Shown here: positions 48,301 through 64,000 of the stretch, in pieces
How positions within the stretch are numbered: position 1 is the stretch's first letter
Layout: every line of letters begins with the position of its first letter
Assembly: GCA_964506645.1 (NCBI GenBank)
Contig: CAZDML010000002.1
Location: 3,012 to 67,011 of the forward strand
Direction: 5' to 3'
DNA length: 64,000 nt
DNA from: an uncultured Elusimicrobia bacterium
Lineage (GTDB): Bacteria > Elusimicrobiota > Elusimicrobia > 2-01-FULL-59-12
Notes under the pieces: model-generated
What the model saw: only the letters and a program-made list of their open reading frames with translations
Database searches by the model: none
Told to the model about the DNA's origin: nothing
Translations under genes and position numbers: made by a program

Positions 48301-51300
48301 CGGACCCGTCGACAGAATATTGTGATAGGCATCGTGCATCACCACACAGCCACTGAAACCGACACCGGCCGAGCTGGTTGTCGGCAGACCCGTGATATGC
48401 AGATGATGTTTGGGACCCGGATACACACGCAAGGCATTGGACGCGCCGGAAGTAATTGCTGTTGTGCCCACCGGTGTCGTAGGCGTGGTCGAAGCCGTGA
48501 TCACAAAGCTAAGTTGCGCCGAGCTGGCAACAACTGTCCACGGCATGTAGCCGACACCATTCAAGAGCTGGCTCGGGTTGGCCGGTGACTGCCAGTTTAC
48601 ATCTGAATCGTTGGACGTTAAGAGGACTTCCGGCATCGTGCCGAGGCTGACCAGGTTGTACTGCGCATCCGTCAGATAGACGGTGGTCACAAAGGCTGTA
48701 CCCGCTACCTGAGAGGTCGGGCTTCCGGTACGACCGGTGGCCGAGCCCTGGAGCGGCGCTTCCCCTGGCATCACAACCATCAATTTGGTGGCCGATCCCG
48801 CCAGCACATTGAACGAACCGGTATCCGGTGAAACCGAAGTTGCCCAAGTCGTGGTCGGGTCAACCAGGTTGGTATCGACCGCGCTGGCCGTGCCGGTGCT
48901 AGCCGTACGGAACTGCAGCGTCACATTGGCCACGCTCTGGCCGTTGCTGATTGTCTGCGTGGCCGGTTCCGTATCGTAAGGATCAGAGGTACGCACGGCG
49001 ACCTGTTCGGTCAAGTGCGACGTCACCGCGTTGAAATACGTATCGGACACCTGCAGAGTGGCCGTGTAAGTAGATCCCGCCACGAAGGTATTCACGGTGC
49101 CGGTTTTGCCCGGAGCCCCGGAGCCCGGCGTTGCGGTTTCACCCGGCAAAAGCAGGAGCAGCTTGGTCGCTGATTTCGGACTCGCCGTAAACTGGGAAGA
49201 AATGGAAGACGTCCAGGCCGTACCGTGACCGACCGTCACATCATCGGCACGGAAGAATTCGGTGGTCGCTTTATAAAGCGTGTATACAAAGGTTGTCTGG
49301 CCAGAGGCTGCATTAATCGCTTGCGTGCTCGGATTCACGGCATAAGGATCCTGATTGCCCACAATTGAAATCTGAACATCAGCGGTGTTAGCACCCGGAT
49401 TGGCCGGTGGTACAGTGATCGTATTGAAGAATTTATCGGTCACGTACACGCTCACCTGCAGCAAGTTACCGACCGTGTAGGCTGACGGGGATCCGGCTTT
49501 ACCGGTGGCCGTTCCGTAGGACGGTGTTTCACCCGGCAGCACCGTCAGTAGTTTGCGGGTCGCACCGCCGCTGCTATTGGCGCTCACGGCGATTGCCGCG
49601 GTGAGTGATTGTGTGTAGTTGGAAGTCCCCAGATCCTGCGCCGTCAGTGTCCATCCGGTATTGGTGGATGTCAGTAGCGTCATCGGGAATGTGTAGCTGC
49701 CGGTGGTTACGTTAATAGCCACAGGATCGAGCCCATCGGATGTCCACGGACCCGTGGATTGATCGTTCGGATCTGACGACGTTACGCGCAATGTGCCCGT
49801 CGCGCTGGCCACGAGGTTCCAGAAACCGTCAGTGATATTCACCGTCGGATAGAACACCACCCCCGCCGTCTGCGCATTGGGCGATCCGCTCACACCGCGC
49901 GTCATCAAGACGTTGCCCGGGACTGCGGTTTCGCCCGGCAGCACGAGCTGCAGCTTGGAGGCCCCAGCAGCAGTCACAGTAAACGTGGACGACGCCAGGG
50001 TAAGTGCTGGCGCATTCGTATCATTGGACACTGCCGTTACGGTGGTTAGACCGGCGGTCTGAACATTGATGCTGCTCACCTGGAGCTGCCCGCTGGAGAG
50101 CGAGTAGCTTCCTGGATCAGTGTCATACGCATCATTGGTGCCGACATAGATCGGGTTGCGGCCGGTCGAGACAATGTTGGAATACGCATCGGTAACATAG
50201 ACCGTGGCTGGCATATCCACACCCGCGATCTGTGTCGCGGCTGTCCCGTTGATGCCAGAACCCGCAACAAGCGTCTGGTTCGGCAGTGCAATTAAGAGTT
50301 TGGTCGGCGCACCGGCCTGCACAAACACGTTGGTGCTGGTGTCCGATGAATAGCCCAGAGCGGACTGATCCGCGGCCGTGTAGGTCCAGGTGCCGGCGGT
50401 GACCGGGGTCACACCGTAGACAGCGACCGCTGCCGAGAGCGACTGTGGGTTACCGCCCAAGTACGCCGATTCATTATCAAACGGATCGGTTGAAGTCAGC
50501 AGAACGCTCGGCATCGTAGCCGCCGACTGCACGTTGTAATAACTGTCCGTCAAGCGTACCGTCACGTTGTAGTTCGTACCGGCCGTCGCTGTGGTAGGCA
50601 AGCCCGTTTTGCCTTTGGCACCGCCAGCAATATAGCCCGCCACCGCCGTTTCGCCCGGTATCAGGAGCTGCAGTTTCGCAGCCGGACCGGCTGTCACCGG
50701 CACGACGGCAGAGGTATTGGACGAGACCGTAGTGACAGAATCGGAAGTGGTCGATGCGGTGATCGTCCAGCTCGAACTGGCGCGTGCAAAGACCATCTGG
50801 AAGATGGTCGCTCCGGCGCTGAGCGTTTGCGGATTAAGCGCTGGGGCATAAGGATCGGTGGTCGTCAGCTGCACTTTGACGTTGGCTGGAACTTTGTTCC
50901 AGTTCAGATCAACCACGTTCACCGTTACTGGGAAAGCCACGCCCGCGGCCTGGGTCGTGATGCTCACCGACGTTTTGCCCGTGGTCGAGCCCGGTACAGC
51001 GGTTTCGCCCGGCACCAGAATTTGCAGTTTCACAACGCTGTTCGCATTCACAGTGATCTGCGAAGATGTCACAGAAGAGGAACTTGCATCAAGCGGCGTC
51101 CCGGACATACGCAGCGCTGTGAAAGACGCCGTGGGGGTTGCTGTCTGCAGCGTAAAGGCGTAGTTCGTAGTACCGATCAACGAAATCGTTTGCGGGCTTA
51201 CAAATAGGTCAGACGGTGTTACCTTCACGCTGATCGATGCGGTCGGCACAACGTTAAAGTGTTTATCTACCGCGTTGACCGTTAACGTGTTCGAGACACC

Positions 51301-54300
51301 CGAGGTCCAGGCCGTCGGTGTGCCAGTGCGGCCCAGGCCGTTCAAATTGTACGTTCCTGAACCGGCGAGCACGCTTTCGCCCGGCAGAATCACTTGCAGT
51401 GTCTGTGCGGCGCCTGACTGCACCGGAATTGCTGGGGATACATCCGAAGCCACATTGAGACCTGGGGCACTGGCGGTTAGCGTCCAGCCTGTGGTGCTGG
51501 CAGTCGTCATCGTCCAGGCCTGAATCGTGGATCCTGCGGTAAGAGCGATGGAGAGTGGATCGGCTTGATATTCTGCCGTGCGATTGTCGTACGGATCCGA
51601 GCTGGCCAGGGTCATGCCCGGAGGCGTGGTGTTGGTCTTGTTGAAGAAGCGGTCGACCGTGCGCACCGTAACATTAAAGGAAGTGCCGGCGGTGGCTGTG
51701 CTGATGGACGTAGTCACTTTGCCGGTGGCTGACCCAGGAGCAGCCGTCTGGCCAGGCACCAAAATCTGAACTGCGTTCACGCTGTCGGGAGCCATCGTCA
51801 TTACACCGGATTGATAGGGTGCACTCAGCGTGAAGCCAGTGGCCGACGCCGTCACAGTCTGTGTACTGGCGTTTCCTGCTGCATTTTCTGCCGTCTTCAT
51901 CATGAACGGAATAAGCTGATAACCGCCGGTCAAGATCTTCGGACTATCCGTAGAGACCGGCACGGCGTTACCGTCGGACGATGTCAGCGTAACGACCGGG
52001 GCCGTCGTCGTCACAATATTGTAGTAAGCGTCTACCGCACGGACTTCGACAAAGTAGGTGGTGCCCACAGCAAACGCATCGAGTGTGCCTGGGGTGGTCG
52101 GATAGTTGGAGTCCGGCGATCCGGATTTGCCGCCTCCTGTGGTATTGCCTTCCTGGCTCGTTTCACCCGGGGCCAGCACGAGGAGTTTCTGCGCCGTGTT
52201 GGCCTGGACCGGAATCCATGTGGAATAGCCCATCGTGTAGGGATCGCCCGTCGCGGTGGACACCATGAGCTGCCAGCCCGCCGGATTGCGTGTAATCAGC
52301 GTCACACCGGTAATGACCACCTGACCCGTCTGACCTCCCGAGCCGGTCTGGAAGCTGCCAAGACCCTGGATGCCGGATTGCGCATTCGTGTCATCCGTAT
52401 TGAGCTGAAGGAACGTCGTCGCCGATTCAGCCAGGTTGAAATAGGAGTCGACCAGGCGCGCCGTCACATTGAACGGCGTCCCCGCGGTTTGCGTGTTAGC
52501 TGTGCCTGTCTTACCGCCGGACTGTCCAGCGTCGTACGGTGCACGGCCCGGATCTGCTGTTTCACCCGGCACCAGGACGATCAGTTTCGTTGGGGCCGCC
52601 GCATGGACCGTAATCGGATCGGTGGTCGTGCTAATGAGCGGTGCGCCGCCGTAGCCGGTAATCGTAGAGACAAACACCGTCCACGGGCCCGGCGCTTTGC
52701 GGAAATTAATGGTGTAGGCCGTGGGGCCGTTTACAACGGTCGTCGCCGGATCTGTATCGTAGGGGTCGCTCGTAATCATCTGAATCTGCGGCGTGATATC
52801 GGTCTTCGTATTGTAGAAGCGGTCGGTGATCGTTACGGTCGAGATGTACGCCGTGCCGGCCACAGCATCCGTGATCGCACCCAGGAAACCGCGCGCGGTA
52901 CCCGGCGTGTAGGTTTGTCCCGGCAACACCACAAGGACGCGGTCGGTCGTGGTGGCATTCACAACGACAAAATTGGAGGTATCCGAGCTGACGGTAATGC
53001 CGGAGACTGCGGTGGTGGCCGCGCCGACGGTCCAACCCGGAGCGGTGTTCGCCACTTTAAAGGTGATGTTAAAGGTCGCCTGACCGGCCGAGAGGCTGTT
53101 GGCCGCCGGGTTTATCGCGTACGGATCGGTGGCGGTCACTTGCACGGTCGGCATCGTGCCGCTGGTGACTTTGTTGTACTTTGCGTCAACCATGCGCACG
53201 GTGGTCGCATACGTCGCACCTGCAACCGTCGCACTGACCGATCCGGACTTCCCGAAGCCTGGCACGGCCGTTTCACCCGGCATGAGGAGCTGCAGACGAA
53301 CCGGTGCGCCCTGATTGACTGGGATAGCGGCGGACGTTGCGGTCGTAAGGTTGTACGCGTTGGCGTAGAGCACCTGCGGACTAAACGTATCGGTCGACAC
53401 GGCCAGCGTCACACCCAGGGTCGCCACACTCTGACCGCCGGAGAGACTGACGGACTGCGATGCTGGCGTGCCGTAGATATCGGACAAAGTGACGGTGGCA
53501 ATGGTCACGGTCGAAACGGTGTTGTAGAACGCGTCGACCGCGCGGATAGCGCCAATGGGCAGTGTAAAGGCAATACCTGCGGTTTGGGTATTGGGCGTTC
53601 CTGTCTTTCCGGTCACCGAACCCGGCGCCGCGGTTTCACCTGGCAGTAAGATCTGCAGTTTCGAGAGTCCGGCCGCATTCACTTTCACCGGGCTCGATAG
53701 ATGGATGTTGAACGGCGTGCCGCTTGCCGTTCCCGAGCTCGTCAGGGTCCAACCGGTGGCAGTCGCAGTCCGCAGGATAATACTGGTGTTGTCGGACAAC
53801 ACACCGTTCGATGTGCCCGCACCATTGATCAGCGGGTTGAGTCCGAGGCTGACGACATTGGAGTCATTGGTAATCACATAAATATTCACAGGGTTTCCGG
53901 TGGTATTGGCTTCCACCAGGTTCCAGTAATCATCGACCACGCGCACCGTGATCGGCACCGCCACACCGGCAGTCTGCGTCACAATCGCTCCGGTCTTGCC
54001 ACCGTTATTGGTCGGCCAGTAGCCCGTGCCCTGTACCGGCGTTTCGCCCTGCACCAGGATCTGTAGATTTTTCTTGGTGACATCCGGGTCGATCGTCAGA
54101 TGTTCATAGGCTGAGTTAAAACCGGTGGCGGTCGCGGTGGAGGCCGTGAACGGTGCCAGCGAAAGGTCGTAATCGGTGGTGCGCTTCGTGACGAAGTTCC
54201 ACAGGAAAGTCGAGGTGCCTTGCGTCAGTCCGATGCTGAGAGACGGCGACGGTTTGGCGTTCGTATCGTCGGTCTGCACGTTGACCGTGACATTGGTAGA

Positions 54301-57300
54301 AATAATATTGCCCCAGGTATCGGTCGCATCCAACGTAAAGGTAATAGTGGAGCCAGCGACGAAGTGCGCATCCGAAGCCGGGCCCGTGCGGGGGCCGCTC
54401 TTTAATAAGGTAGAACCGGGCAACGCACTTTCGCCATTCACCAGCAAGCGCAAGTAGCGAGGGCTCGACGCACCGGAATCCGGATAGAGCGTAAAGGCCG
54501 GCGACGTATAAGTCGGATTGCTCAGACCCACGATATTGCCACGGATCGTCTGGGAGGATCCGTTGTAGTCGACCGCACGGAACAGGGTGACGCTGAACGT
54601 CGTCGTACCGCTGGTCAGTGATTTTGCACCGACACCTGTCGCGAACGGATCATCGGGCGAGCTCAAAGTGAGCGAGCTTCCAGAATTGGTCTGGTTCCAA
54701 TAGCCGTCGACCGCATATACCGTTACGATCTGCGGCGTACCGGCAATCCATGAGGTCGGCGTTCCAGATTTGCCCCCCGTTCCGCCTGTGGCCGGCGCAT
54801 AGGGAGGCTGACCTGCCTGATACGTTTCACCCGGCAACACCACAAGTACGCGGTCCGCGCTACCCGCGGTGATCGGAATCGCGGCGGCCGAACCAGACGT
54901 GTACGCGCCTGTGTGGAACATGGAAACGGTCTGTGATCCGGCCTGATACATCTGGATCGCAAAAGAAGTCGTGCCGCTGGCAAGCGGTTGTGTGGTGCCG
55001 TCCGTATCATACGGATCGGTCGTCTGGAACCAGACGTTACCGGTCGCCACGCCGCCCACCGCATTGTTGTACGCGTCTGTGATCGTTGCAGTCGCTTTCC
55101 ACACCGCGCCCGCAGTTGCGCCAGTCGGACTCCCTGAGATGCCGCTTCCCGCGTTAAGCGTGGTGCCCGGCACAGTCACCATAATCTTGGTCGGCGAGTT
55201 CGCCACAACCGGCAGAGCGGCGGACACTTCATCGGCCAAGCGCTGGCCCGTCACGGTCGACACACGCACCGTCCAGCCGCTGCCGGAAGCGGTGATAAAT
55301 TGCAGCGCGAACACCGTCGTCCCGCTGGTCAGGTCCTGCTGGATATTGGTCTGCGTCGCATTCGGATCGCTTTCGATCATCTTGATCTTGGCCGCCGCAG
55401 TCGAAATCAAGTTGAAGTAGCTATCCGTCGCATTCACCGTAGCGGAGTACATCTGGCCAGCCGTAAACGGCGTGGCCGGGCTGCCAGATTTTCCAGTCGG
55501 CGATCCTGGAGCGGCCGTCTGACCCTGCACGAGGAGCTGCAGTAAGGTGGCCGAGCCACTGATCACCGTAAACGAGGTGCTGGTAGATGCTGTGAAGTTG
55601 TAGGTGTTGGATGTCACCACGTTAACGAAGTACGACGCGGTGGTCGTGGAGCGGTTGACCGCTGTAACGACCGTCCCTGAGCCGCCCGACAAACCGAAGG
55701 AAGCGCCGCCCGGATACTGCGTATATAAGGAAGCATTCGCGCCGACACGCACGACCGGGTTGTCATTGACCAGGTTGTAGTACTGGTCCGTACCAACCAC
55801 GGTCACAGTGAACGTGGAACCGGCGACCGGGCTCACACCGCCAAAGGGGGTACCTGTTTTCCCGCTGGCGGCGACATTGCCCTGCGACAGGCTTTCGCCC
55901 GGCAGCAGGATAACCAGGAGATGCGGATTTCCGGCGTTGGTGTCCGGGTTCACAAGCAGCGGGCCTGCGCTCGCATAGGTGTAGCCCGGACCGGTATTGG
56001 TCGTCACTGTCACAGTCCAGCCCGTGGTCGAGGCCGACTTAAAGGTGTGGCCGTAGGTCGTGAAATAGGTGCCGCTATTGATCGATTTGGTCGTGTCCGG
56101 ATCCGGCGAATCGTACGGATCGGTCGTCGTCAGACTCAAATTGACCGCTCCGCCGGGATTATTGACCACGTTGTAGTATGGGTCGGTGAGGCGCACGGTG
56201 AGGCTGTAGCTCGTTCCAGCCGTCGCTGCGGTGATCGAGCCTGATTTTCCACCACCTGCCACATTGCCCGGCACGGCGGTTTCGCCGCCCAGAAGAATAT
56301 GCAGTTTTGTCGGGCTGGCCACTTGCATCGGGATGTTTTGCGACACGTCCGAGTTCAGTGTCCCTGTCGCCGTTAAGACGTGAGGAATTGATGCCCCGTT
56401 TGAGGCCTGCGCACTAAGCAGCGTGACCGAGTAAGTCGTCGAACCCGAGGTCAACGCCTTCGTCTGCGCCGTGAGGCCTGGCGTTCCGTAGGCGTCATCG
56501 CTGGTTAAATACGTCGCAACGTTGGTCGAGATAATGTTGTACCAGTCATCCGTCGCATTGACCGTAACGATGAACGCCTGGCCGGCGGTCTGTGTATTGG
56601 GAGTTCCCGTTTTTCCGGCCGGGTTACCCGCGCCGCCAAAGTCTGCCGGGATACCAGCGTCAGCCGTTTCACCCGGGGCCACAATCTGATAGCGCGAGAG
56701 CGTGTTGGCCGATACGGTAAAGAACGTGGAATCGGCTGCGGCATAGGTCAGGCCTGGATCCGTCGCCTCAATTTGGTGATTCGAACCCGCAGTGACCAGG
56801 GTCACGGAGGCAATAAAGGTAGCGTTGTACCCGTTGTTGCCGACGTTCGTCATCACGAGGCTCGGTGGATACGTGGCGTATTGATCCATCGGCAAGGACG
56901 CCGCCGAGGCCGCCAACTGAACGGTCGGGAACGGCAGACCAGACACGTTCTTAATCGGATTCGAATAGGCATCGACCAAGTTCACAATGACGCCCGGCGC
57001 CTGAATCGCCACACCCGCGGTCTGCGCGGTCGGCGTTCCCGTCTTGCCGCCTGAGCCTGGGACGTTGGTTTCACCCGGCAACAAGACCTGGAAGACAGCC
57101 GTGTTGCTGGACGCTTTCACGTTCACACTCGAAATGGTTTGCGACGAAATGGTCGCGCTGTCCGTATCGACCGCCGAGAAGCTCCAGCCCGACTGTGCTG
57201 TACGCGGTGTGAAGGAAGCAAACACCACTTGGCCTTGGTTCATGGGCGTTGTGGAATTACCCTGAACATAGACATCGTTGCCCACGGTTGCGACATTGTC

Positions 57301-60300
57301 AGCCACATTACTGGTGTAGATGCCTGGGGCCCCACGATTGCGGTTCCAATAGTGGTCAACCGCCTGGATCGTGATCGGGAAAGCCACACCAGCGGTTGCT
57401 GATCCCGGCAGCGCTGGATTGGTTTTCCCCGCACCCCCCGGTGAGGACCCTTCATCGTAAGTCTGGTTCGCGGTTAAGACGCGCAATTTCACCACCGGGC
57501 CCGGATAGACTTTTACCCAGGTCGATTGATCCATCGTGTAATAGGAGCCTGAGCCGCCGTCGGACGGGTCGTTCTGATCGCGCACCGTCATGAGCCAGCC
57601 TTTCAGGTTGCGCGTCGGGTTGGTCGAAGGCGATGTCGGGTTGTTCTGCGTGCGGTAGGTTACCGTGCCGATCGCCACACCGTTATTCAAACTCATTGCC
57701 AGGAAGATCGGCGTCAGGTTGGGATCGCCGCTGAGCGAGGTATCCGAGTGCATATTCACCACCGGCATCGGCAGGTTGTTCGTAATCAGGTTGTAGTATT
57801 GGTCCACCAGGCGCACCGTGAAGGTGCTGGCAATACCCGCGTAGTAGAAAGCAGGGCTTCCGCTCTTACCGCCGTTGGTCTGATTATAAGGAGGCAAACC
57901 CGGTACCGCGGTTTCGCCCTGCATCACCAGCTGCAGGCGCTGTGTACCGACCGAGGCCGTATCGGCACCCACCGTAAAGTTCGAAGTCACGTAATTCGGG
58001 TTCGTGAGGACCGAGGTCGCCAGCACCACCTGCGAACCGGCGGTCACCGGTACAAGCGAGAACGTGGTCACACCCGAAGCCAACGTCAAGGACGACGGCA
58101 CCACCGCATAGGTGTCACTGGAAAGCGAGATCCAGACCTTATCCAGACTGTCCGAGGTGTCCGTGTTATAGAACGAGTCGACCCCATAAACAGTTGCCAC
58201 GAGTGTATTTCCGGCCAGGATACCATTCGGTGTACCGCTCTTACCCAGCGGTGTTGTCTGGTATTTGCCCTGGACACGCGACTCACCCGGCAGCATCACC
58301 AAGAGACGATTGGCCGTTCCGGGATTGATCGTAATATTGCTCGAGGTATTTCCTGTACCGGCACCAGAGACAGCCATTGTCTGCACGCCGGCACTTACCA
58401 TGGTCTGATTAAAGATGGTGGTTCCGGAAGAGAGCGGCTTATTGCCCGGATCTGTATCAAAAGAATCGGAGGTCGTCGCCGTAATCGTCGGGTTGCTTGA
58501 CGGCGTGACATTCCAATATTGGTCGACGGCGTTCACAGTAACTGTAAAAGGCGCCCCAGCAGTAAAGCTCAGAGGAATGGTGTTCTTGCCGGCCGGGGCT
58601 GTCGTTTTACCCCCCGCGTTGGTTTCGCCCTGGATCAAGACCTGTAATCCGACGGTTGTGTTGGGCACGACATTAATGCCCGTCTGATTGCCCGCTGAAA
58701 CGGCCAAGCCCGACACACGAGACACGGTCAGTGTACGGCCCAGCGCCGCTTTCAGCAGAGTGAGGCCATTGGTAAAGACATGAGTACCGTTATCCGATCC
58801 CGGTACAAAAGTGTAATTTGCCGGAAGGCCGGCGCCTGCACTTTCTGGTCCGATCGTAGCATCGGGATTGGCAATCGAGAAACCAACGGTACCGTTATAC
58901 GACAGTGCCACACCATTGGCGTTATCGAGCGCATTGACTGTGATGTCACGCGATGTACCGGCCGTGATATTGGTCGTCGTATCCACAATCACCTGCAGAT
59001 GATCGGCGGGCAAGGTCACGATAAAGTTGTTGCCGTTGCCGATGTCCGAGTTGGACTCGATGTTGCCGGCATTATCAATGGAGCGCGCCTTTGCCCAGTA
59101 GCGCTTACCGGAAATCCAAATACTGTTACTCGAGTAGCTCCAGTTAAGCGTTCCCGAAGCGTCGAGCCAGGAGTTGGCTTCATCGGTTCCGACGCGTGAG
59201 AAGGAGGAGTTGTTGACTGCGTTAAAGCTGGACGGATTGTAGAAATAGTCCTCCGGTCCCGCCGACTGGCCGGTGGGCGCGTTATCCAAACGCAGGGAGA
59301 TCTGCACTTTTCGGATGCCGGCTAGACCGACATCGGCCGCAGTTCCTGCGATGCTGGCCGGGTTCTGCTGCACGTCGTTATCGGCGGGTGATGACACAGC
59401 ACCGTGTGGCGTATCCGTATCAAAGATAACGGTCGACGTTGTGCCAGGGGTTTCCGTATTGCCCACCGCATCCACCGCATAGGCATGAACAATATAAGTC
59501 GCCCCGTTAGTCAGATTGACGGCATCAAGACCTGTGTTCCAATAGGACCAGGAAGCCGTCGATGTCGCAATTAGGAAATATTCCGTAGTCGCACCGAAAT
59601 TCGCGCCGTTAAAGTAGTGGGTCGCACCACCGCTGAGTTCTTCCACTGAGACATACACACGAGAAACACCCGCCGGATAAGTATTCGGGTCGCTGGCCGT
59701 TCCGGAAATAACCGTCATCGGTTCGATGATGGAATGGGCAGCGCCGTTCACCGGTTTCTGGATCAGTGTGATGGGCGCCGTTGTATCGAGAGTAAAGGTG
59801 ACGGTGTTGTACGCCACTTCAAAGTTGCCCGAACGGTCGTTGGCACGCGACTGGATGGTGTAACGGTCATCGGTGTACACGTTGGTTGAAATCGCCGGAC
59901 CTGTGGTCACTGACCAGGTGTAGTTGGGCAGTATGCCCGGGGTGACTTGTGCCGCCAACGGGAAGTTGAGGCTCGTGCCGGAGTTATCAAAGAGCGCCGT
60001 ACTCGGGTTGTAATATTGGCCCGAAGAATTGCCAATACGAATCTTGACACCGCCTGAGGCGATACCAGATCCGTTGGAACTGACATCACTGGCGGTCCCG
60101 CTGATTACGAGCGGCCCGGAAGACAGTCTCACATTGTTGGTGGGCAACGTCGTTTGTGATGTCGGTGAGCTGCTATCCACCGTGAAGTTAATGCCCCCCG
60201 CGCCCGTGACAAAATCAAACGTGGAGCCGAGGTTGCCGATCGGAATATTACCGGCATTATCGCGTGCGCGCACAAACATCTTGTAGCGGGCGTTGGAGCT

Positions 60301-62127
60301 GAAGGCGCCGGAGAGACTGTTGTAGCTCCAGGTGCCACTCGTAATGCCTACGACTGTCGCGCTCAACCACGGCGTACAACCGCTCGAACAATCGCCTGTC
60401 CAGCCACTGCCGTTCCAATAGGCATTGAGGGTATCCACAAACGCCACATCCACCGCCAAAATACCTGATCCTGTCGATGTATCGTCCATGGTGCCCGAAG
60501 CTAATGTCACCGCTTGTGGCACGCCACCGTTGGACGGCACGGAAATCTGCGACGTTGCTGTGCTGCTGTCGTAAAGTAGAGAAACCCCTGTGCCCGCCGG
60601 AACATCGGTGTTGAGCGGGCCAAATTCTACATTGCCCGCCTGATCGGTCGCGCGGCTGACAAAACGATAGCTGATACCGCTCGTAAAGGCGCTCTGCAGA
60701 CCGCCTGGCAGGCTGGAGGTCCAGGTGTTGGGAATCGGCGTGGTGCTGTTGGTGACAGTCAGCGTCGCGTAGTTCGGATCGGTAGCGCTGAAGTTAGCCC
60801 CATTCCACCACAAATTGTTGCTCAGACGCTTCACGGCCAATTGCACCGCACCGGTCGAGATCCATGCCGGGTTATTGAGGGCTCCGCTCAAGTTGTCCGT
60901 GGCCGTCCCGGAGACAGAAACCGCCGTGGTCGTTGTGAAATAGAGACCGCTGGGCGAGGAGATGGTGGTGGTCGGTATCAACACGTCGTAAACAAAGCGG
61001 TTCGTCACCGTGGTGACGTTACCGGCATTATCGCTTGCGCGCACCGCAAGGTCGTAACGGTGATCGTTCTTAAAGAAGAGGCTGGCATGCGTGTAGGTCC
61101 AGTTGGCCGTCGTCCCCAGCGCACCGATGAAGAACGGTCCGCCGGCAGTAAAGGTGCTGCCTGTCCAGTAGTTCGGCCCCCCGCCATCGACATCGGTCAG
61201 AGAAATCGTGACAGTACTGATGCCAGACGGTGTTCCACCCGGATCGCTGGAGGTTCCGGCAAACGGCGTGGAAATCTGAATCTGCGAGTGGAATGCGTTG
61301 TTGAGTGGCTGCGAAATGGTAACGCTCGGCACAGACGTATCATAGGTAAAGGTTGAAATCGTACTGATGTACGTGTTGCGATGCGGCGTCACTCCCGTGC
61401 CGGTCACGTTGTCCTGCACCTGCAGTTTCAGATAGTAGTTCTTATCTGACACCAGCGATGGCAAGGTGTAGGTCCAGGACGAGACAAAGATGGTCGCCAC
61501 ATTCGAAGAAATGGTCGGGATCCAGGCGGCGCCGTTCCAATAGACTTTGCTGCCGCCCGTACCACTGGAGAGTTGCACGTTTACATTGTTAACACCGGCC
61601 AAGTCATCGGACATGGTGCCCGTCAGAATGACCGTTGCGCTCGACACCGAGGCATTGGCTGCTGGCCACGTTAAGGAAGCCGTCGGCGATGTGAAATCGA
61701 TATTGAAGTTGAGGCTTGTCGTTGCGCTGATGTTCCCACCACCCGTTCCATCGCCCAGCGTGGTCTTGTCTTCTGAGCGCACATCGAGCGTCATGACATG
61801 GCTCATATCGGTCGGCCAGGTAATATCCACTCCGCTTTGCACATCGTAGTCCCAGTTGCCTGTGCCCGAACCCGATACCGAGCCGCCCGCATTCAGCCAA
61901 GCCGTTGTGGCATTCACGCTGGTCGAAGAGAACGTCGCGCCGTCCCAATAATAGGTAGAAGATCCCCGATGGATTTGTTCCAGCATCGGTGTCCGTTCCC
62001 TGAAGCGAGGTATTGTTCGCCACCACACCCAGTTCGCTCGGCTGATAGGAGATATTGGCTGTCGGTGTGGAGATGATAGGCGCGTTGGGTGCCGTCTTAT
62101 CAATAAGCATCGAAAATGACGAGACAT
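39337..62127 (-). CDS. giant extracellular multi-Ig-domain protein, main reading frame (7596 codons). It has, in order, He_PIG/HYR-like Ig modules, ~35 tandem ~95-aa invasin/intimin-like (Big-type) Ig domains, a divergent beta-rich region, seven ~230-aa modules with a DxNxDG motif, FN3, and a T9SS/Por-type (FlgD-Ig-like) C-terminal sorting domain
   Basis: A single 22.8-kb ORF. The Big-like repeats (about 58500-48450) share the pattern ..LLPGET(A/S)xPG..GK(T/S)G(T/S)P..QTAG..F.VTV.AVD.(Y/F)(W/Y)N..........V.L.(T/S)SD.., for example KLQLLIPGETAVAGYIAGGAKGKTGLPTTATAGTNYNVTVRLTDSYYNV. The DxNxDG modules (about 45300-40700) include DINNDGKFQPE at 45216-45248 and WKDINDNGIFDD at 42105-42150. FN3 is ..VTLQWPVPSDYGPSGIFAYKIRQFEG... 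The C-terminal tail ..NYPNPVDTRKGGLEGKTFITYLLAGDADVEITIYDLLGYRV..GGYLAQIKAGGQKGSATVIRKIGVIH (39650-39337) resembles the Por_Secre_tail/FlgD-Ig domain. The first ~55 codons of this ORF (62127-61965) are out of frame; the real N-terminus continues in the 61604-64000 frame. Confidence 0.8.
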   Translation of the reverse strand: MSRHFRCLLIRRHPTRLSSPHRQPISPISRANWVWWRTIPRFRERTPMLEQIHRGSSTYYWDGATFSSTSVNATTAWLNAGGSVSGSGTGNWDYDVQSGVDITWPTDMSHVMTLDVRSEDKTTLGDGTGGGNISATTSLNFNIDFTSPTASLTWPAANASVSSATVILTGTMSDDLAGVNNVNVQLSSGTGGSKVYWNGAAWIPTISSNVATIFVSSWTYTLPSLVSDKNYYLKLQVQDNVTGTGVTPHRNTYISTISTFTYDTSVPSVTISQPLNNAFHSQIQISTPFAGTSSDPGGTPSGISTVTISLTDVDGGGPNYWTGSTFTAGGPFFIGALGTTANWTYTHASLFFKNDHRYDLAVRASDNAGNVTTVTNRFVYDVLIPTTTISSPSGLYFTTTTAVSVSGTATDNLSGALNNPAWISTGAVQLAVKRLSNNLWWNGANFSATDPNYATLTVTNSTTPIPNTWTSSLPGGLQSAFTSGISYRFVSRATDQAGNVEFGPLNTDVPAGTGVSLLYDSSTATSQISVPSNGGVPQAVTLASGTMDDTSTGSGILAVDVAFVDTLNAYWNGSGWTGDCSSGCTPWLSATVVGITSGTWSYNSLSGAFSSNARYKMFVRARDNAGNIPIGNLGSTFDFVTGAGGINFTVDSSSPTSQTTLPTNNVRLSSGPLVISGTASDVSSNGSGIASGGVKIRIGNSSGQYYNPSTALFDNSGTSLNFPLAAQVTPGILPNYTWSVTTGPAISTNVYTDDRYTIQSRANDRSGNFEVAYNTVTFTLDTTAPITLIQKPVNGAAHSIIEPMTVISGTASDPNTYPAGVSRVYVSVEELSGGATHYFNGANFGATTEYFLIATSTASWSYWNTGLDAVNLTNGATYIVHAYAVDAVGNTETPGTTSTVIFDTDTPHGAVSSPADNDVQQNPASIAGTAADVGLAGIRKVQISLRLDNAPTGQSAGPEDYFYNPSSFNAVNNSSFSRVGTDEANSWLDASGTLNWSYSSNSIWISGKRYWAKARSIDNAGNIESNSDIGNGNNFIVTLPADHLQVIVDTTTNITAGTSRDITVNALDNANGVALSYNGTVGFSIANPDATIGPESAGAGLPANYTFVPGSDNGTHVFTNGLTLLKAALGRTLTVSRVSGLAVSAGNQTGINVVPNTTVGLQVLIQGETNAGGKTTAPAGKNTIPLSFTAGAPFTVTVNAVDQYWNVTPSSNPTITATTSDSFDTDPGNKPLSSGTTIFNQTMVSAGVQTMAVSGAGTGNTSSNITINPGTANRLLVMLPGESRVQGKYQTTPLGKSGTPNGILAGNTLVATVYGVDSFYNTDTSDSLDKVWISLSSDTYAVVPSSLTLASGVTTFSLVPVTAGSQVVLATSVLTNPNYVTSNFTVGADTASVGTQRLQLVMQGETAVPGLPPYNQTNGGKSGSPAFYYAGIASTFTVRLVDQYYNLITNNLPMPVVNMHSDTSLSGDPNLTPIFLAMSLNNGVAIGTVTYRTQNNPTSPSTNPTRNLKGWLMTVRDQNDPSDGGSGSYYTMDQSTWVKVYPGPVVKLRVLTANQTYDEGSSPGGAGKTNPALPGSATAGVAFPITIQAVDHYWNRNRGAPGIYTSNVADNVATVGNDVYVQGNSTTPMNQGQVVFASFTPRTAQSGWSFSAVDTDSATISSQTISSVNVKASSNTAVFQVLLPGETNVPGSGGKTGTPTAQTAGVAIQAPGVIVNLVDAYSNPIKNVSGLPFPTVQLAASAASLPMDQYATYPPSLVMTNVGNNGYNATFIASVTLVTAGSNHQIEATDPGLTYAAADSTFFTVSANTLSRYQIVAPGETADAGIPADFGGAGNPAGKTGTPNTQTAGQAFIVTVNATDDWYNIISTNVATYLTSDDAYGTPGLTAQTKALTSGSTTYSVTLLSAQASNGASIPHVLTATGTLNSDVSQNIPMQVASPTKLHILLGGETAVPGNVAGGGKSGSITAATAGTSYSLTVRLTDPYYNVVNNPGGAVNLSLTTTDPYDSPDPDTTKSINSGTYFTTYGHTFKSASTTGWTVTVTTNTGPGYTYASAGPLLVNPDTNAGNPHLLVILLPGESLSQGNVAASGKTGTPFGGVSPVAGSTFTVTVVGTDQYYNLVNDNPVVRVGANASLYTQYPGGASFGLSGGSGTVVTAVNRSTTTASYFVNVVTSNTYNFTASTSTSFTVISGSATLLQLLVQGQTAAPGSPTGKSGSPATPFTAGQMYSATVNATDSYFNLISTAAAKIKMIESDPNATQTNIQQDLTSGTTVFALQFITASGSGWTVRVSTVTGQRLADEVSAALPVVANSPTKIMVTVPGTTLNAGSGISGSPTGATAGAVWKATATITDAYNNAVGGVATGNVWFQTTDPYDTDGTTQPLASGTTSFAIQMYQAGSQTVSMFHTGAYTSGSAAAIPITAGSADRVLVVLPGETYQAGQPPYAPATGGTGGKSGTPTSWIAGTPQIVTVYAVDGYWNQTNSGSSLTLSSPDDPFATGVGAKSLTSGTTTFSVTLFRAVDYNGSSQTIRGNIVGLSNPTYTSPAFTLYPDSGASSPRYLRLLVNGESALPGSTLLKSGPRTGPASDAHFVAGSTITFTLDATDTWGNIISTNVTVNVQTDDTNAKPSPSLSIGLTQGTSTFLWNFVTKRTTDYDLSLAPFTASTATATGFNSAYEHLTIDPDVTKKNLQILVQGETPVQGTGYWPTNNGGKTGAIVTQTAGVAVPITVRVVDDYWNLVEANTTGNPVNIYVITNDSNVVSLGLNPLINGAGTSNGVLSDNTSIILRTATATGWTLTSSGTASGTPFNIHLSSPVKVNAAGLSKLQILLPGETAAPGSVTGKTGTPNTQTAGIAFTLPIGAIRAVDAFYNTVSTVTIATVTLSDIYGTPASQSVSLSGGQSVATLGVTLAVSTDTFSPQVLYANAYNLTTATSAAIPVNQGAPVRLQLLMPGETAVPGFGKSGSVSATVAGATYATTVRMVDAKYNKVTSGTMPTVQVTATDPYAINPAANSLSAGQATFNITFKVANTAPGWTVGAATTAVSGITVSSDTSNFVVVNATTTDRVLVVLPGQTYTPGTARGFLGAITDAVAGTAYISTVTITDRFYNTKTDITPQIQMITSDPYDTDPATTVVNGPTAYTINFRKAPGPWTVFVSTITGYGGAPLISTTTDPITVHAAAPTKLIVLVPGETADPGRAPYDAGQSGGKTGTANTQTAGTPFNVTARLVDSYFNLAESATTFLQLNTDDTNAQSGIQGLGSFQTGSGGQTGQVVITGVTLITRNPAGWQLMVSTATGDPYTMGYSTWIPVQANTAQKLLVLAPGETSQEGNTTGGGKSGSPDSNYPTTPGTLDAFAVGTTYFVEVRAVDAYYNIVTTTAPVVTLTSSDGNAVPVSTDSPKILTGGYQLIPFMMKTAENAAGNASTQTVTASATGFTLSAPYQSGVMTMAPDSVNAVQILVPGQTAAPGSATGKVTTSISTATAGTSFNVTVRTVDRFFNKTNTTPPGMTLASSDPYDNRTAEYQADPLSIALTAGSTIQAWTMTTASTTGWTLTASAPGLNVASDVSPAIPVQSGAAQTLQVILPGESVLAGSGTYNLNGLGRTGTPTAWTSGVSNTLTVNAVDKHFNVVPTASISVKVTPSDLFVSPQTISLIGTTNYAFTLQTATPTASFTALRMSGTPLDASSSSVTSSQITVNANSVVKLQILVPGETAVPGSTTGKTSVSITTQAAGVAFPVTVNVVDLNWNKVPANVKVQLTTTDPYAPALNPQTLSAGATIFQMVFARASSSWTITASTTSDSVTTVSSNTSAVVPVTAGPAAKLQLLIPGETAVAGYIAGGAKGKTGLPTTATAGTNYNVTVRLTDSYYNVQSAATMPSVLLTSTDPFDNESAYLGGNPQSLSAAVAVYGVTPVTAGTWTYTAADQSALGYSSDTSTNVFVQAGAPTKLLIALPNQTLVAGSGINGTAATQIAGVDMPATVYVTDAYSNIVSTGRNPIYVGTNDAYDTDPGSYSLSSGQLQVSSINVQTAGLTTVTAVSNDTNAPALTLASSTFTVTAAGASKLQLVLPGETAVPGNVLMTRGVSGSPNAQTAGVVFYPTVNITDGFWNLVASATGTLRVTSSDPNDQSTGPWTSDGLDPVAINVTTGSYTFPMTLLTSTNTGWTLTAQDLGTSNYTQSLTAAIAVSANSSGGATRKLLTVLPGETPSYGTATGKAGSPSAYTVGNLLQVSVYVTDKFFNTITVPPANPGANTADVQISIVGNQDPYAVNPSTQAINAASGQTTFVYTLYKATTEFFRADDVTVGHGTAWTSSISSQFTASPKSATKLLLLLPGETATPGSGAPGKTGTVNTFVAGSTYTATLQVSDTYFNAVTSHLTEQVAVRTSDPYDTEPATQTISNGQSVANVTLQFRTASTGTASAVDTNLVDPTTTWATSVSPDTGSFNVLAGSATKLMVVMPGEAPLQGSATGRTGSPTSQVAGTAFVTTVYLTDAQYNLVSLGTMPEVLLTSNDSDVNWQSPANPSQLLNGVGYMPWTVVASSAQLSFVITASTTPTTPVGTTAITSGASNALRVYPGPKHHLHITGLPTTSSAGVGFSGCVVMHDAYHNILSTGPHTSTSTVTSISFNAETTGNGYLTDGNQDPPWLPGTTTFNLITGSGQKCLTNYFSLRAAGSRWLQAVDDSDPINVNSTRGWTIDTNNVWSPTGVVYSTPSYITVTPGAPSQWVVDPAGDQNVPAGTLSSLGRWPVTARLADPYDNYADSAGITVALTTANVSGVAGTISFDASASSAVPPVPTTSTVTNSSGAVSVYYYVSSHAGDYGAVRFSATVGAQPVANQSGRMITTGGDTSKLAFVSPPVSQTAGQDYLHLPLFTLERRDDFDNPTDYQGSTVQLDYTANGQVAVHAGRGFSSSNHDYEFQDPNLLGVPITNLAFSGGDTQKTFVYFDKMSSTPIEDGRVGTWTLRAYIGGTGYANSNVRTSYDLIVNPDAKAQIAFHNPVRTLVAGTPLSLTGNPNLSYLNLEIQDTYGNPTPVVSTATLFLASYRVVSSSYDAYGFSSSTSYFAAPPAPSFVNPITTVTINSGFWGTTFYYLDTNASENYTAPVSSPMLRAFSTGTIDGALLSTGTQKVTISPNALYQIGFLSAPSALVAGTTSQQFRFASEDIFGNPSPITNSAAVFTLTTDVPGTASFATPYSTSAFQSGTSSATIAVGQSTMTFYMKDTLAGDRTVTISRNGFVSANSTYTVAPAPASQLVFATPSRYLVAGTTVQYEPNYSVGAPTNTVITVRAMDPYLNISSVTANTVVNFYVSNSTGAYGYTDASNLSLFKYIPGPVLPNVLPVQMLAGNSSVSMYYYDTQQGTRTMVAFDSVGALTSATTTHFISPAPAAYLTIEPINNVNNPMPVNNLLPFGNIVARDQFGNVARGDVKNGQYYTGTVQFGTSGSTTTVQIYDATDLAHVVSSYTFKVADAGTYSNLLMTDSVQETLHVSATDFVTVVPPVVPSNNAFDPNEDTLQGWTNDAARIVPVHSYGDLVTAGVVMTPVDLSPVPTTDPTYNAKQVLLLGTRWQGKTSLAQGDGTVPVDPQYLPVPMMRLSFQVQPPTYSSSTIISQIVLTKNLASGALADSDIAELDLNYDINNDGKFQPESTYQGVQPDPMVSSTTFVNGVATFANLSLPITAASAKNYFVSVRVASDVVTALPANLGLKVTAASQVTVVGLGMASNNFPVVTSTSPVLRQPATIRVDGQDLAAWWDPGTGLGQQNYVSQGSDQVGMLRLGFWTDAFQGAVNRIRVSRTGTGDDTDIADVKIYKDCNSDGVFTPSLDNCDITSGATFVNQVTSITLNSNLIVTPTTSYVFIAYHLSPSASLNTQGASVRNPSDIFPADGTVGAFSQINSTQVPVQPSTDELDLTRVNDPANGFNIGQVATQGDTDVVAMKMTLAVRNPLGGGLVNSAIWNHLRLDRGNPNGFNHARDIDAIRVYYDNNNDGLFEVNADTLVTSTSKVYEFPHEVLTADVDASTTVIPVNDASAYPPAPGLVWIDDEQMTYTALDLTNNKLTGVVRASSGTVAAAHTAGTDVEGQAYLDLVDPNGILNGQEILVTPKNYFIVMDINYLANVNSQDSLGVEIASTSYFVVDTPDLVGNHSGNIGLPPLGQTAGTYITNVKEYVDTVVLTSTNTTVGDYLQQGATNQAVLRFDMRTNHARAGFTGITVSRAGTAADSDITSVKVWYDRAGTGIFNVAVDSPPLGSGVFGNPAAGLARINFDTVTYSTDLNDLTTGPLKVDTAVRKLNNYFITFDMANIATPQNTIGVTVSSPVFVNISAPNTMSGTNMPASSKLRTIIPKPQRLQASSTYYFSTDTGNYPLPHLLAPVMSNDVTATLNTSSGMPTSGLMVIDAEVLGYTGILGNVLTGLSRCVSGSCTTPPAIHSTYTYVNSVEQPNYIGVNYTQGMRNVALIKFSLQDIDDYNIRWFSLDLGRTPGGLSGADSDLSAVKVYSGDTLYRTSDGEIGIQNTLVGSGVSQFGSIHLAVNDPNLGSPGYVLISTAPATYWVVADISQSATAGHAFALNAITKDAFTVGALVAGDGIHSVMPTNFPMQTGDHVIGATVDTMTVVFTDLLPTVIQQNATNVPVAKMNLKVNQNTVIWTGLTLTRTGAKPDDGDVLRMNVWKDINDNGIFDDGNTLPLSTLSQAITASDSSLQVAVSTSFPIGPAVLLVGSELIRYANNDLAGNFTGLTRGFLGTTAAVHAIATNVRGVVNDTLVSDAGTKPGQITPGTDNFTNSVRAITFTAQQIIPNVTDKITGMNYFITYDINPFVPVYRDLNNNGVQDAGEAVSIGGLISATTSFAVITPDLVTLSANPPLTTKLAAFSEYPDQVSFSPDTSITPVYATQGDKDIPILKFSLRSNVSTALFNTLKISRKGAGAVQTQGSNDDIGLVKVYRDVNFNGILEPTTDELISSGTFVQPDPNGTNPKTVQLTIKDQLLSPTTQTYFVAYDIATGATSNNTEGLTIIDPGWFGGSFTPIGVDQMLPNGIPVESRQVTISPLTVRVSGQSLAPGSALEGEASVPLMSVTIQPSINQVVVSSLTLTQLGTITTSTGTPPNLVGDGDFSRLYVHLDTNYNGKLDAGDSLLGSLPWGTTSSGFIGGLATIPFSTAVSINTSGATLLVSADIGTVDGSGAATQGHSAGISVASAGAITMTPLTALQDQSNVYPIRSALVPIFNFQTVQVGTVTMRPDLTTSTVSGLEGVYMPEAWVHDQGAISAHWTTVPPSLPANVTVTYQVGMSASSNTTIAPSLTGWVSLSQTPPITLTGLGLEDTKTYYFFVRTITTINGLTLPPSPVMMGTVHVDVTKPAPPSKFINLPKTSNTGIVTLQWPVPSDYGPSGIFAYKIRQFEGTSPVPTEIIMTSTPSYTFGSNINNNAPAYSLHAPGGAASIGGASTTSPLVYLNGETGAARSPNNFYRWQIQTINGAGTASEWSTISETVNTGLPEDIISEVSNYPNPVDTRKGGLEGKTFITYLLAGDADVEITIYDLLGYRVMHWSFPGGTEGGRQGPNTVPPGGWDGTNEAGQKVSKGGYLAQIKAGGQKGSATVIRKIGVIH

Positions 62128-63991
62128 TCAGGACAAAATTGCTCTGTGCATTATTGGCCATGTCGATGGCACGCATCACGACCGCATAGCGGGTATCGGT
62201 CACCAGACGCGAATCCAGATTGCCGCCATTGGTGTACTGCCAGGTTAGGGTCGACCCTTCCGCCGCTAAAAAGTTCGGTGTCGATTGAACGAGGACGAAG
62301 TTACTGCCATTGAACCACTTGGCCGAGGTTAAGTTCTGCAGGGCAATTTGAATGGTGCTCACGCGTACGTCATCATTCGATGTTCCAGTGATATTAGGCA
62401 GGGAACGAATGCCCGTGAGACCCATGAGCGGCAGCGTGACGGTCGCCGTCGGCGCGACGTTATCGTAAGTCACGGTCACGCCCACGTTCGCAGGAATGTC
62501 GGTCACGAGCGGACCAAATTCCGCATTGCCCGCAGTGTCCGAGGCGAGGCTCACGATATAGTAAGACGTACCGCTGACCAGAGACGTAATGAAGGCCGCC
62601 GGCATGGTGGATGTCCAGGTGTTGGGCACCGTCAGGCTGGTGTTGGTTACCGTAAAGGTGCTGTAGGTCGGATTGGCGCCCAGGAAGTTCGTTCCGTTCC
62701 ACCACTTGGCATCGCTTAAGCGTTCTACGGCCAGTTTTACACCATTCACCGGCACGCTGGACGGATTCACCGGTGCCCCCACGAGATCCGATGCGGTCCC
62801 GCTGATTAAGGTCCAGGACGTCACATACCCCGCGAGCGGGAAGGTCACGACCGAGGTTGGTTTCACCACGTCGTAGACGAAGCGGTTCGTGGTGGTTGAA
62901 ATATTGTTGGCCGAGTCGATTGCACGCGCCAATACATCGTAGCGATGGTCGTTCTTAAAGAAGAGCGATGCATGGGTGTAGGTCCAGTTTGCGGTCGTGC
63001 CTTGCGCCGCCAGGTAGAACGGTCCGCCCGCCGTAAAGGTGCTGCCGTTCCAGTAGTTCCCCGCATCGATATCCGTTAAGGCGATTGATACCGTGCTTAC
63101 GCCCACGGGCACCGAGCCCGTATCCGAAGACACTCCGGCAAACGGCGTCGACACCGAGACCGCCGAGTAGAAGCCGTTGGCCACCGGCAAGGTGATGCTG
63201 ATGTTCGGCGCCGAGCGGTCGTACGTAAAGGTGGAGAGCGCGCTCGTATAAATGTTCGGGTTTGACAACACGTTATCGGTGGCTTTTACACGCAAGTAGT
63301 AATTCTGATCATTGGTCAGAGTCGGCAATGTATACGTCCAGGACGAGCTAAAGAGCGTTGTGGCAACCCACGTCACGTTGCTTTGCGTAGTGGTCCAGCT
63401 GGATCCGGTCCAGTAATACTTTGTCACCGTGCCGCTGGAGAGTTCCAAGGCCAGGGCACTCACGCCGGAGAGATCGTCCGACATTGTTCCGGTGACGATC
63501 ACAGTCGCACTCGATACCGCTGCGTTGACAGAGGGCCAGTCAATGGAGACCGTGGGCGATCCAAAATCGATCTTAAAGGTGGTCGTGGAATAAGAACTAA
63601 AATTGCCTGAGCCGGTCCCGTCGATCAGCGTCGCGTTATCTTCCGAGCGGGTTTCCAACACCATGCCATGACTCATATCGGTCGGCCAATCAATATCCGA
63701 ACCGCTGGTGTTGTTGTAGTTCCAGGCCGTGCCCGCACTCTGCCAGGCCGTGGTTGCATTGACGCTGGTAGAGGAGAATGCAGCCCCATCCCAATAATAG
63801 GTGCTGCCACTCAAGACATAAGAAAGACGAATGTCCACACGTTTAATCCCGGAGGGGTTCGTGCCCGGATCACTATCGGTTCCACGAATCTGCGAATTGT
63901 TGACGATATGACCGATATCGGACGGCTGATACGCCGCGCCGTTGCTCGGCACGCTGACCGTCGGTGCGTTCGGAGCAGTCTTATCGATCAA
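60650..63991 (-). repeat. long tandem intragenic repeat: about 1.88-kb unit (copy 1 63988-62108, copy 2 62107 to about 60650, becoming diverged), each starting LIDKTAPNAP; the window edge cuts a preceding copy
   Basis: Protein-level alignment of the two copies. Shared blocks include STYYWDGA.FSSTSVNATTAW, WPTDMSH.M.L..RSED, SSATVI.TGTMSDDL.GV, SSWTYTLP.L..D.NYYL, STFTYD, STPFAG.SSD, and GSTFTAGGPF..A.GTTANWTYTHASLFFKNDHRYD...RA.D.A.N..T.TNRFVYDV. At the DNA level, GCAGTCTTATCGATCAAGAT matches GCCGTCTTATCAATAAGCAT at the copy starts. Confidence 0.5.
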
Positions 63992-64000
63992 GATCGTATA
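61604..64000 (-). CDS. 5' portion of the same giant gene in a different frame (open at the window edge; frameshift relative to the main frame near 61960-61970)
   Basis: The frame is open from nt 64000 (..YTILIDKTAPNAP..; the track's 'M' at 63991 is a TTG Leu codon). It encodes about 680 aa of Ig-like modules ending ..GTDTDAGTNPSGI, then runs out of frame. The main ORF resumes the homologous sequence (..GSSTYYWDGATFSSTSVNATTAW..) in another frame. Copy 1 has ..NPSGIKRVDIRLSYVLSGSTYYWDGAAFSSTSVNATTAW.. and copy 2 lacks about 38-40 nt there. Confidence 0.7.
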   Translation of the reverse strand, partial: YTILIDKTAPNAPTVSVPSNGAAYQPSDIGHIVNNSQIRGTDSDPGTNPSGIKRVDIRLSYVLSGSTYYWDGAAFSSTSVNATTAWQSAGTAWNYNNTSGSDIDWPTDMSHGMVLETRSEDNATLIDGTGSGNFSSYSTTTFKIDFGSPTVSIDWPSVNAAVSSATVIVTGTMSDDLSGVSALALELSSGTVTKYYWTGSSWTTTQSNVTWVATTLFSSSWTYTLPTLTNDQNYYLRVKATDNVLSNPNIYTSALSTFTYDRSAPNISITLPVANGFYSAVSVSTPFAGVSSDTGSVPVGVSTVSIALTDIDAGNYWNGSTFTAGGPFYLAAQGTTANWTYTHASLFFKNDHRYDVLARAIDSANNISTTTNRFVYDVVKPTSVVTFPLAGYVTSWTLISGTASDLVGAPVNPSSVPVNGVKLAVERLSDAKWWNGTNFLGANPTYSTFTVTNTSLTVPNTWTSTMPAAFITSLVSGTSYYIVSLASDTAGNAEFGPLVTDIPANVGVTVTYDNVAPTATVTLPLMGLTGIRSLPNITGTSNDDVRVSTIQIALQNLTSAKWFNGSNFVLVQSTPNFLAAEGSTLTWQYTNGGNLDSRLVTDTRYAVVMRAIDMANNAQSNFVLNVSSFSMLIDKTAPNAPIISTPTANISYQPSELGVVANNTSLQGTDTDAGTNPSGIFYLLLGRRDVLFDQRECHNGLAECGRLGIGFGHRQLGLRCAKRSGYYLADRYEPCHDARCALRRQDHAGRWNGWWEHQRNDKPQLQYRFHIADGFLNVASSQCLGVERNGHSDGHHVR

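Follow-up and report, generated by a model that had tools for sequence, protein, structure and literature searches.

We examined a 64,000-nucleotide (nt) stretch of DNA from an uncultured Elusimicrobia bacterium (positions 3,012 to 67,011 of contig CAZDML010000002.1, hereafter the window), in which the visible part of a giant gene on the minus strand begins with two kilobase-scale repeats, here called units A and B. Our analysis makes it probable that A and B are the last two units of a conserved array of five-domain super-repeats, each of ~628 amino acids (aa), in the stalk of a protein of more than 8,200 aa that is probably displayed on the cell surface by a route resembling the type IX secretion system (T9SS). 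The product of the locus belongs to the giant immunoglobulin (Ig)-repeat surface proteins built by block duplication. The core of the original prediction for this DNA, a kilobase-scale tandem duplication within a giant and probably surface-exposed protein, is thereby upheld, but the continuous translation that it assumed is not, as the frame of unit B is broken by a 38-nt deletion.

An ancient block duplication

Units A and B adjoin with a period of 628 aa or 1,884 nt, close to the ~627 aa first estimated. The minus-strand translation contains the decapeptide LIDKTAPNAP that opens both units two times and no more, at residues 4 and 632, with first bases at 63991 and 62107; YTI precedes it in the first instance and, 628 residues on, FSM in the second. 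The two units are ~54% identical in a global protein alignment of 597 codons and colinear over about 570-597 residues, and in a BLASTP self-comparison of 200-aa chunks no similarity within the whole protein is stronger than that at an offset of 622-631 residues, where A/B chunks match at 42-58% identity (E 1e-35 to 1e-73). In DNA, blastn recovered an off-diagonal segment of 1,004 bp (64.4%, E 3.6e-41) and another of 218 bp (67.9%), at offsets of 1,885 and 1,894, and a repeat finder returned ungapped blocks of 36-144 nt with 72-86% identity at offsets of 1,846-1,885. The off-diagonal line of more than 1 kb proposed as a check on the duplication thus appears narrowly in DNA and clearly in protein.

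A hidden Markov model (HMM) built from the unit assigned 13 domains of the window to a single class: five belong to A, five to B, and three further ones, C1-C3, lie on the 3' side of B. Corresponding domains are 56% (A1-B1), 59% (A2-B2), 65% (A3-B3), 48% (A4-B4) and 28% (A5-B5) identical, whereas all non-corresponding pairs are 20-38% identical, a background level to which A5-B5 has also fallen. The first four domains of each unit are thus closer to the domain in the same position than to any in a differing position, as block duplication would leave them, and the original description of long conserved blocks followed by divergence holds at this finer scale. A and B are true paralogues with domain-by-domain correspondence. 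It could be argued that there is no true higher-order repeat and that the 628-aa period is an accident of generic Ig-like resemblance in a long homopolymeric chain, given that all 13 domains share a common motif pattern and background identity of 20-38%, and that the central part of the gene is self-similar at every multiple of ~125 aa. We give this reading almost no chance, for identities of 48-65% are reached when the chain is shifted by five domains and at no other shift, tandem copies of the five-domain order are found on five other contigs, and distant giant proteins align with it colinearly over long stretches.

The predicted third copy cut by the window edge is not visible: upstream of A there are three in-frame codons (YTI). 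C1-C3 were considered as a partial third unit 3' of B and rejected, since they resemble the domains of A and B only generically (20-37%).

The duplication that gave rise to A and B is ancient, and both copies have been kept under purifying selection. Nonsynonymous divergence (dN) is 0.42 and synonymous divergence (dS) is saturated at 1.64, for a dN/dS of ~0.26; identity at third codon positions is 44%, and the same codon is used at 163 of the 323 identical residues. Global nucleotide identity is 59.7%, the longest exact word shared by the copies is 17 nt, and they have no 20-mer in common. RecA-type recombination and assembler collapse both require much longer near-identical stretches. With a longest match of 17 nt, 59.7% nucleotide identity and a dS of 1.64, the copies therefore offer no substrate for recombination and pose no hazard to assembly, and they lie far from a recombinogenic array of the variable-number tandem repeat kind (nucleotide identity roughly above 90%, exact matches of tens to hundreds of nucleotides). 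Tandem Repeats Finder, run over 39-64 kb, returned only trivial repeats of 8-12 nt and nothing at A/B, because the copies are too diverged.

These values bear directly on the picture originally drawn, of a recent tandem duplication with ongoing recombination, a classic site of assembly collapse, and hence an unreliable copy number at A/B. Such a picture has in its favor the regular 1,884-nt period, the identical decapeptide at the head of both units, and the existence of near-identical copies of the same unit in one relative. Against it stand the low nucleotide identity, the short exact matches, the saturated dS and the silence of Tandem Repeats Finder, together with the finding that A matches units of other organisms (up to 52%) about as well as it matches B (~53%). 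We regard it as very unlikely. A and B lack the k-mer and overlap similarity through which an assembler might collapse one on the other, and the repeat at A/B presents no assembly hazard at this spot.

Orthologous arrays in metagenomes

A word-indexed search with unit A returned 24 proteins with best identities of 47-57%, nearly all from ENA metagenome assemblies and bearing faint Big_13/Big_3 annotations. The relatives studied at the DNA level (L006 to L011, ENA ERZ26871208 and ERZ25039482) come from error-rich long-read assemblies whose contig names end in _np1212, and in these the gene is chopped into many open reading frames (ORFs) by frameshifts every 0.3-2 kb. Since frameshifts split the ORFs of relatives, protein databases hold the family mostly as fragments of 400-900 aa. 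Mapping of unit A onto the relatives' DNA revealed tandem units spaced at about 1,830-1,920 nt in every case: at least five to six in L006 (spacing ~1,870-1,900 nt), at least three in L007, which is a short contig, at least six to seven in L008+L009, which share one 93-kb contig (starts at 9668, 13868, 15791, 17684, 19592 and 21469), at least five in L010, and at least seven in L011.

On the 3' side of the array, L008+L009, L010 and L011 remain colinear with the gene in the window for thousands of residues at 39-65% identity, and we therefore treat them as orthologues. Unit B occupies the position of their last unit, and they have at least five to seven units ahead of this position. B5 aligns with the fifth domain of the orthologues' last unit, and A5 resembles their ordinary fifth domains (37-56%), so that position and domain content both identify B as the terminal unit of the array. 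On the 93-kb contig, at least 9.6 kb of coding sequence plus a called gene of 2,175 residues precede the array. As a separate observation, a single giant gene, broken into fragments, seems to take up most of this contig (ERZ26871208 contig_192105_np1212).

Two modes of change are visible among the relatives, with inter-unit identities measured on alignments anchored to unit A. (i) Units in the same position of L010 and L011 are 69-75% identical, and the best pair within either contig reaches 56-61%, which indicates that arrays are normally inherited stably while their units diverge independently. (ii) The merged region 15384-22639 of L008+L009 is a tandem repeat at the DNA level, with a period of 1,890 nt, ~3.8 copies and 95.6% nucleotide identity; it starts at the boundary of domains 4 and 5 of a unit, and at the protein level its units still agree at 96-97% in spite of the sequencing errors. 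Other close pairs of units occur in L007 (91% aa identity) and L006 (80%). From these comparisons of sequence, the five-domain unit emerges as the amplifiable module of the family, expanding in sporadic bursts, with the window representing an old and quiescent state. The recombinational length variation first suggested for the locus is thus sustained in part, in that the unit does expand in relatives, but copies A and B themselves are no substrate for it.

The architecture is widespread, not rare. An exhaustive HMMER scan of 1.84 billion representative sequences returned 954 proteins at E<=1e-3, of which 198 reached E<=1e-30, among them many of 2,000-8,000 aa that are colinear with the query over four to five domains (query residues 2-521, 3-562, and 2-614). 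A scan of GTDB species genomes yielded distant relatives only (26-32% identity), mostly from Elusimicrobia/Endomicrobiia with some from other metagenome-assembled genomes (MAGs), and found no genome of the same species. An exact 52-nt search of Joint Genome Institute (JGI) metagenome contigs with the end of the window gave no match.

The gene extends beyond the window

From the window edge at base 64000, the coding frame runs open for 798 codons to the stop at 61606-61604, with no start within the window, and the array was therefore misplaced when it was assigned to the 5' end of the giant gene. By comparison with the orthologues, the array probably continues upstream of base 64000, and we infer that the 5' end of the gene lies kilobases beyond the window edge. 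The visible protein comprises 8,221 residues after the two frames of unit B are joined. The suspicion that the real copy number is higher is probably correct, but because the window edge cuts the array, and not through collapse of A on B. It is in the unseen upstream array that collapse or contig breaks are to be expected, since the orthologues carry near-identical units.

Domain class and fold

Members of the domain class share the pattern D-x-[ST]-x-P ... GTA-D ... V-x-[VL] ... YW-G ... W-Y ... Y ... A-D-x-AGN. From an alignment of 17 sequences, AlphaFold2 modeled unit A as five all-beta domains, with a mean pLDDT of 81.5. When this model was compared with the PDB by Foldseek, only chains with Ig/fibronectin type III (FN3)-like beta-sandwiches matched, with probability 1.0. 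These ranged from cytokine-receptor ectodomains and cadherins to S-layer proteins and the tetra-repeat extender of an RTX adhesin from Aeromonas (6xi1). No PDB entry was matched when sequences were searched with a profile. Each repeat of ~100-135 aa is thus predicted from the model to have a beta-sandwich (Ig/FN3-like) fold. Matches to curated families are marginal: Big_3_2 (PF12245) scored 23.8 bits on a 2,500-aa piece, with a cut-off of 23.3, and Big_13 scored 13.3 bits on unit A, with a cut-off of 27, its matches to the homologues being likewise faint.

The nearest described systems are the giant Ig-like domain repeat proteins (Big_13 PF19077, Big_3_2 PF12245 and Big_3_3 PF13750) of Elusimicrobia and other MAGs, which are also long chains of beta-sandwich domains of ~100-135 aa. 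The homologues carry these Big families, and two of them are named 'Ig-like domain repeat protein' by NCBI. The domains in the window differ in scoring at or below the Pfam cut-offs, and the five-domain super-repeat is absent from the family descriptions. Elusimicrobia have been noted for their many huge proteins (PMC11573180).

Two further systems invite comparison with the locus. The extender regions of RTX adhesins exported by type I secretion systems (T1SS), such as LapA, SiiE, MpIBP and the Aeromonas protein of 6xi1, likewise form a rod of tandem Ig-like domains, and 6xi1 was among the top fold matches. In these adhesins the extender rod projects the binding region from the cell, and the repeat copy number varies among relatives. 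Identity to the units here is ~13%, however, the unit in the window consists of five different domains in place of one, and the C-terminus is T9SS/FlgD_ig-like. No RTX/HemolysinCabind or T1SS signal matched anywhere in the visible 8,221 aa, and the protein does not qualify as a T1SS RTX adhesin. The second system is titin, with its super-repeats of 7 and 11 Ig/FN3 domains, in which domains in the same position are also closer than neighbors, following block duplication. Titin works inside the muscle cells of eukaryotes and is not related by descent to the protein described here; the likeness is one of architecture only.

A 38-nt deletion breaks the frame of unit B

Alignment of the starts of the two units at the DNA level showed that B lacks 38 nt relative to A. 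What B has lost matches KRVDIRLSYVLSG, which forms the long strand E49-60 in the model of unit A. Relatives retain such a strand in each of the 21 units that allow comparison, the positional counterparts of B among them. The resulting frame break is the sole one in more than 24 kb of coding sequence. Beyond it, the upstream ORF runs on for ~119 codons out of frame before reaching its stop, and the true coding frame becomes that of the 7,596-codon ORF of the mechanical ORF list. This listed ORF is not to be taken as the gene: its ATG and the ~55 codons that follow are an Arg-rich out-of-frame reading of B1, beginning MSRHFRCLLIRRHPTRL..., where frame 0 reads MLIDKTAPNAPIISTP... and is 64% identical to A1. 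The continuous translation in the original prediction must therefore have crossed two frames, and the deletion that separates them was overlooked. A scan for promoters and terminators over 61400-64000 found nothing on the coding strand, which leaves an internal start after the break unsupported. We set programmed +1 frameshifting aside as unlikely, as 13 conserved residues of a core strand are absent and the domain would still be defective once the frame was restored.

With a single break in more than 24 kb of intact coding sequence, two accounts of the deletion stand at roughly even odds: a local error in the assembly, or a true change, whether an inactivating mutation of very recent date or a variant within the population. 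If the break is genuine, for which we see an even chance, the locus consists of two genes or a pseudogene and the giant adhesin is switched off in the population; the upstream product would lack the C-terminal sorting tail, and the downstream 7,540 residues would lack a signal peptide. A gap of 38 nt is atypical of base-calling error, and the absence of any other break in the gene speaks for an accurate assembly. Mild support comes from the lack of identical database entries for the 7,596-aa product or for unit A, which would fit annotation as a pseudogene; the same contig also encodes a serine hydroxymethyltransferase (SHMT) and ArgJ, and both of these are represented by identical entries. 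Yet the missing entries may also reflect length limits or partial genes. The intact downstream ORF of more than 22 kb further requires that any inactivation be very recent.

Alternatively, the gap may be an artefact of assembly or consensus, or a minority variant taken into the consensus, and the real gene a single ORF through unit B, to which we assign slightly less than an even chance. The uniqueness of the lesion in more than 24 kb is consistent with such an error, as is the loss of a strand conserved in all comparable units and structurally central in the model. An error would, on the other hand, have arisen where no repeat flanks the gap to explain a short circuit in the assembly graph, and nothing else in the window looks error-prone. 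The real gene leaves the window and, in this sequence, is interrupted once, so that annotations and length statistics need correcting.

Downstream regions and export context

Between the HMM-defined domains and the C-terminus lies a second class of domain, in ~28 tandem copies of ~125 aa each that are 30-41% identical to one another. No Pfam or NCBIfam model matched this ~125-aa array; a sub-threshold match of OmpL47 type was found in the upstream region of C domains. A heterogeneous C-terminal third follows, which contains a GEVED domain and also gave a weak SdrD_B-like match. The tail of the protein reads NYPNPV...ITIYDLLG...WDGTNEAGQKVSKGGY, in keeping with the typical NYPNP...IYD...WDGTN..G pattern, and its scores are all sub-threshold: 20.6 bits against a cut-off of 27 for FlgD_ig, 18.5 against 23 for TIGR04183, 14.5 against 27 for PF18962, and 13 against 27 for CHU_C. 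The next gene 3' encodes a beta-barrel of the PorV/PorQ family fused to C-terminal tetratricopeptide repeats (TPRs); it scores 107.9 bits against a cut-off of 90 for NF033709, lies below the PorV and PorQ equivalog cut-offs, and has TPR and UPF0164/FadL-like matches. A scan of eight proteins and of segments of the giant gene turned up none of the T9SS core components SprA, PorK-N and PorU.

The C-terminal-domain-like tail and the adjacent PorV/PorQ-family gene lead us to propose T9SS-like export and surface display, and from this analysis the protein most likely functions as a very long, rod-like surface fiber or adhesin delivered by a T9SS-like route. A useful comparison is SprB, the T9SS-secreted giant surface adhesin of Flavobacterium johnsoniae, which is likewise very large and repetitive, carries a C-terminal sorting domain, and adjoins a gene for an outer-membrane beta-barrel. 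The differences are considerable, however: the tail here is sub-threshold, the partner is PorV/PorQ-like with TPRs in place of PorP/SprF, the host is Elusimicrobia-like and not of the Bacteroidota, and SprB repeats are absent.

Several points weigh against our interpretation of the array and of the protein that bears it. The assemblies of the relatives are error-rich, so that their identities are underestimated; their unit counts are minimum values, and one sample supplied four of the five relatives. That the array goes on past base 64000 is drawn from the orthologues and not observed, and the N-terminus, with any signal peptide, lies outside the window. Every match of the T9SS-like tail falls below its curated cut-off, and a search of the literature on T9SS or PorV in Elusimicrobia returned nothing relevant, T9SS not being established for the phylum. 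Export, surface location and a role as a fiber are proposed from the architecture of the protein and its neighboring genes.

Coordinates and neighborhood

The positions of all features are collected in Table 1. The taxonomic likeness of the contig is that of one protein, its SHMT, which is 75-77% identical to Elusimicrobia MAG proteins and ~82% identical to its nearest relatives. The genes for SHMT and ArgJ share one NCBI contig of 78,047 nt, which leaves no more than 14 kb of this assembly beyond the window. Farther downstream, a strong AT skew of ~-0.3 over 30-38 kb is explained by two genes for coiled-coil proteins.

Table 1. Features of the giant gene and its surroundings in the window (positions counted from the first base of the window)
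Feature	Position	Strand	Description
Unit A	62108..63991	-	Super-repeat of 628 aa with five predicted Ig/FN3-like beta-sandwich domains; frame open upstream to 64000
Unit A, first bases of domains	A1 63991, A2 63577, A3 63229, A4 62881, A5 62473	-	From translation
Unit A, domain HMM matches	aa 4-127, 142-245, 258-368, 374-494, 511-619	-	From domain HMM
Unit B	~60244..62107	-	Second copy of the super-repeat; coding changes frame at ~61960
B5	starts 60576	-	Diverged from A5
Spurious ORF N-terminus	61962..62127	-	ATG 62127-62125 and next ~55 codons, Arg-rich out-of-frame reading of B1
Deletion junction	61959..61961	-	Last in-frame codon ATC (Ile) 61963-61961, stray base 61960, coding resumes with TCT (Ser) 61959
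Overlap of two frames	61604..61958	-	Upstream ORF out of frame for ~119 codons to stop 61606-61604
Listed 7,596-codon ORF	62127-39337	-	From mechanical ORF list
C1-C3	59056..60186	-	Three further domains of the same class (fused aa 1273-1649), from domain HMM and pairwise comparison
Second domain class	48225..58677	-	~28 tandem copies of ~125 aa
Heterogeneous C-terminal third	39337..48224	-	GEVED domain, weak SdrD_B-like match
T9SS/FlgD_ig-like tail	39340-39699	-	Stop codon 39339-39337
PorV/PorQ-family beta-barrel	37405..39021	-	Fused to C-terminal TPR; next gene 3'
Coiled-coil protein, 1,677 aa	32250-37283	-	E/K/Q-rich, C-terminal TPR domain
SMC-like coiled-coil protein, 685 aa	30171-32228	-
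NHL-repeat beta-propeller protein, 1,189 aa	20991-24560	-	C-terminal TPRs; large, probably extracytoplasmic

Implications for the proposed giant fiber

We propose that an array of this kind would grow or shrink by unequal recombination only while its units are still similar; the copies would then diverge and the array would stabilize, which may be the state captured in the window. The five-domain units could serve as spacer modules that set the length and reach of a rod-like fiber. A bolder extension would make the unit the length module of an undescribed class of giant fibers, with PorV-dependent T9SS-like export, amplification in bursts, and the 38-nt deletion as an off-switch in the population, but we hold this combination to be improbable.

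Neither of the domain classes described here is more than barely recognized by current Pfam and NCBIfam models. The locus offers a clean example of a giant surface protein built by duplication of a multi-domain block, followed by long divergence under purifying selection and, in the family, occasional bursts of amplification.

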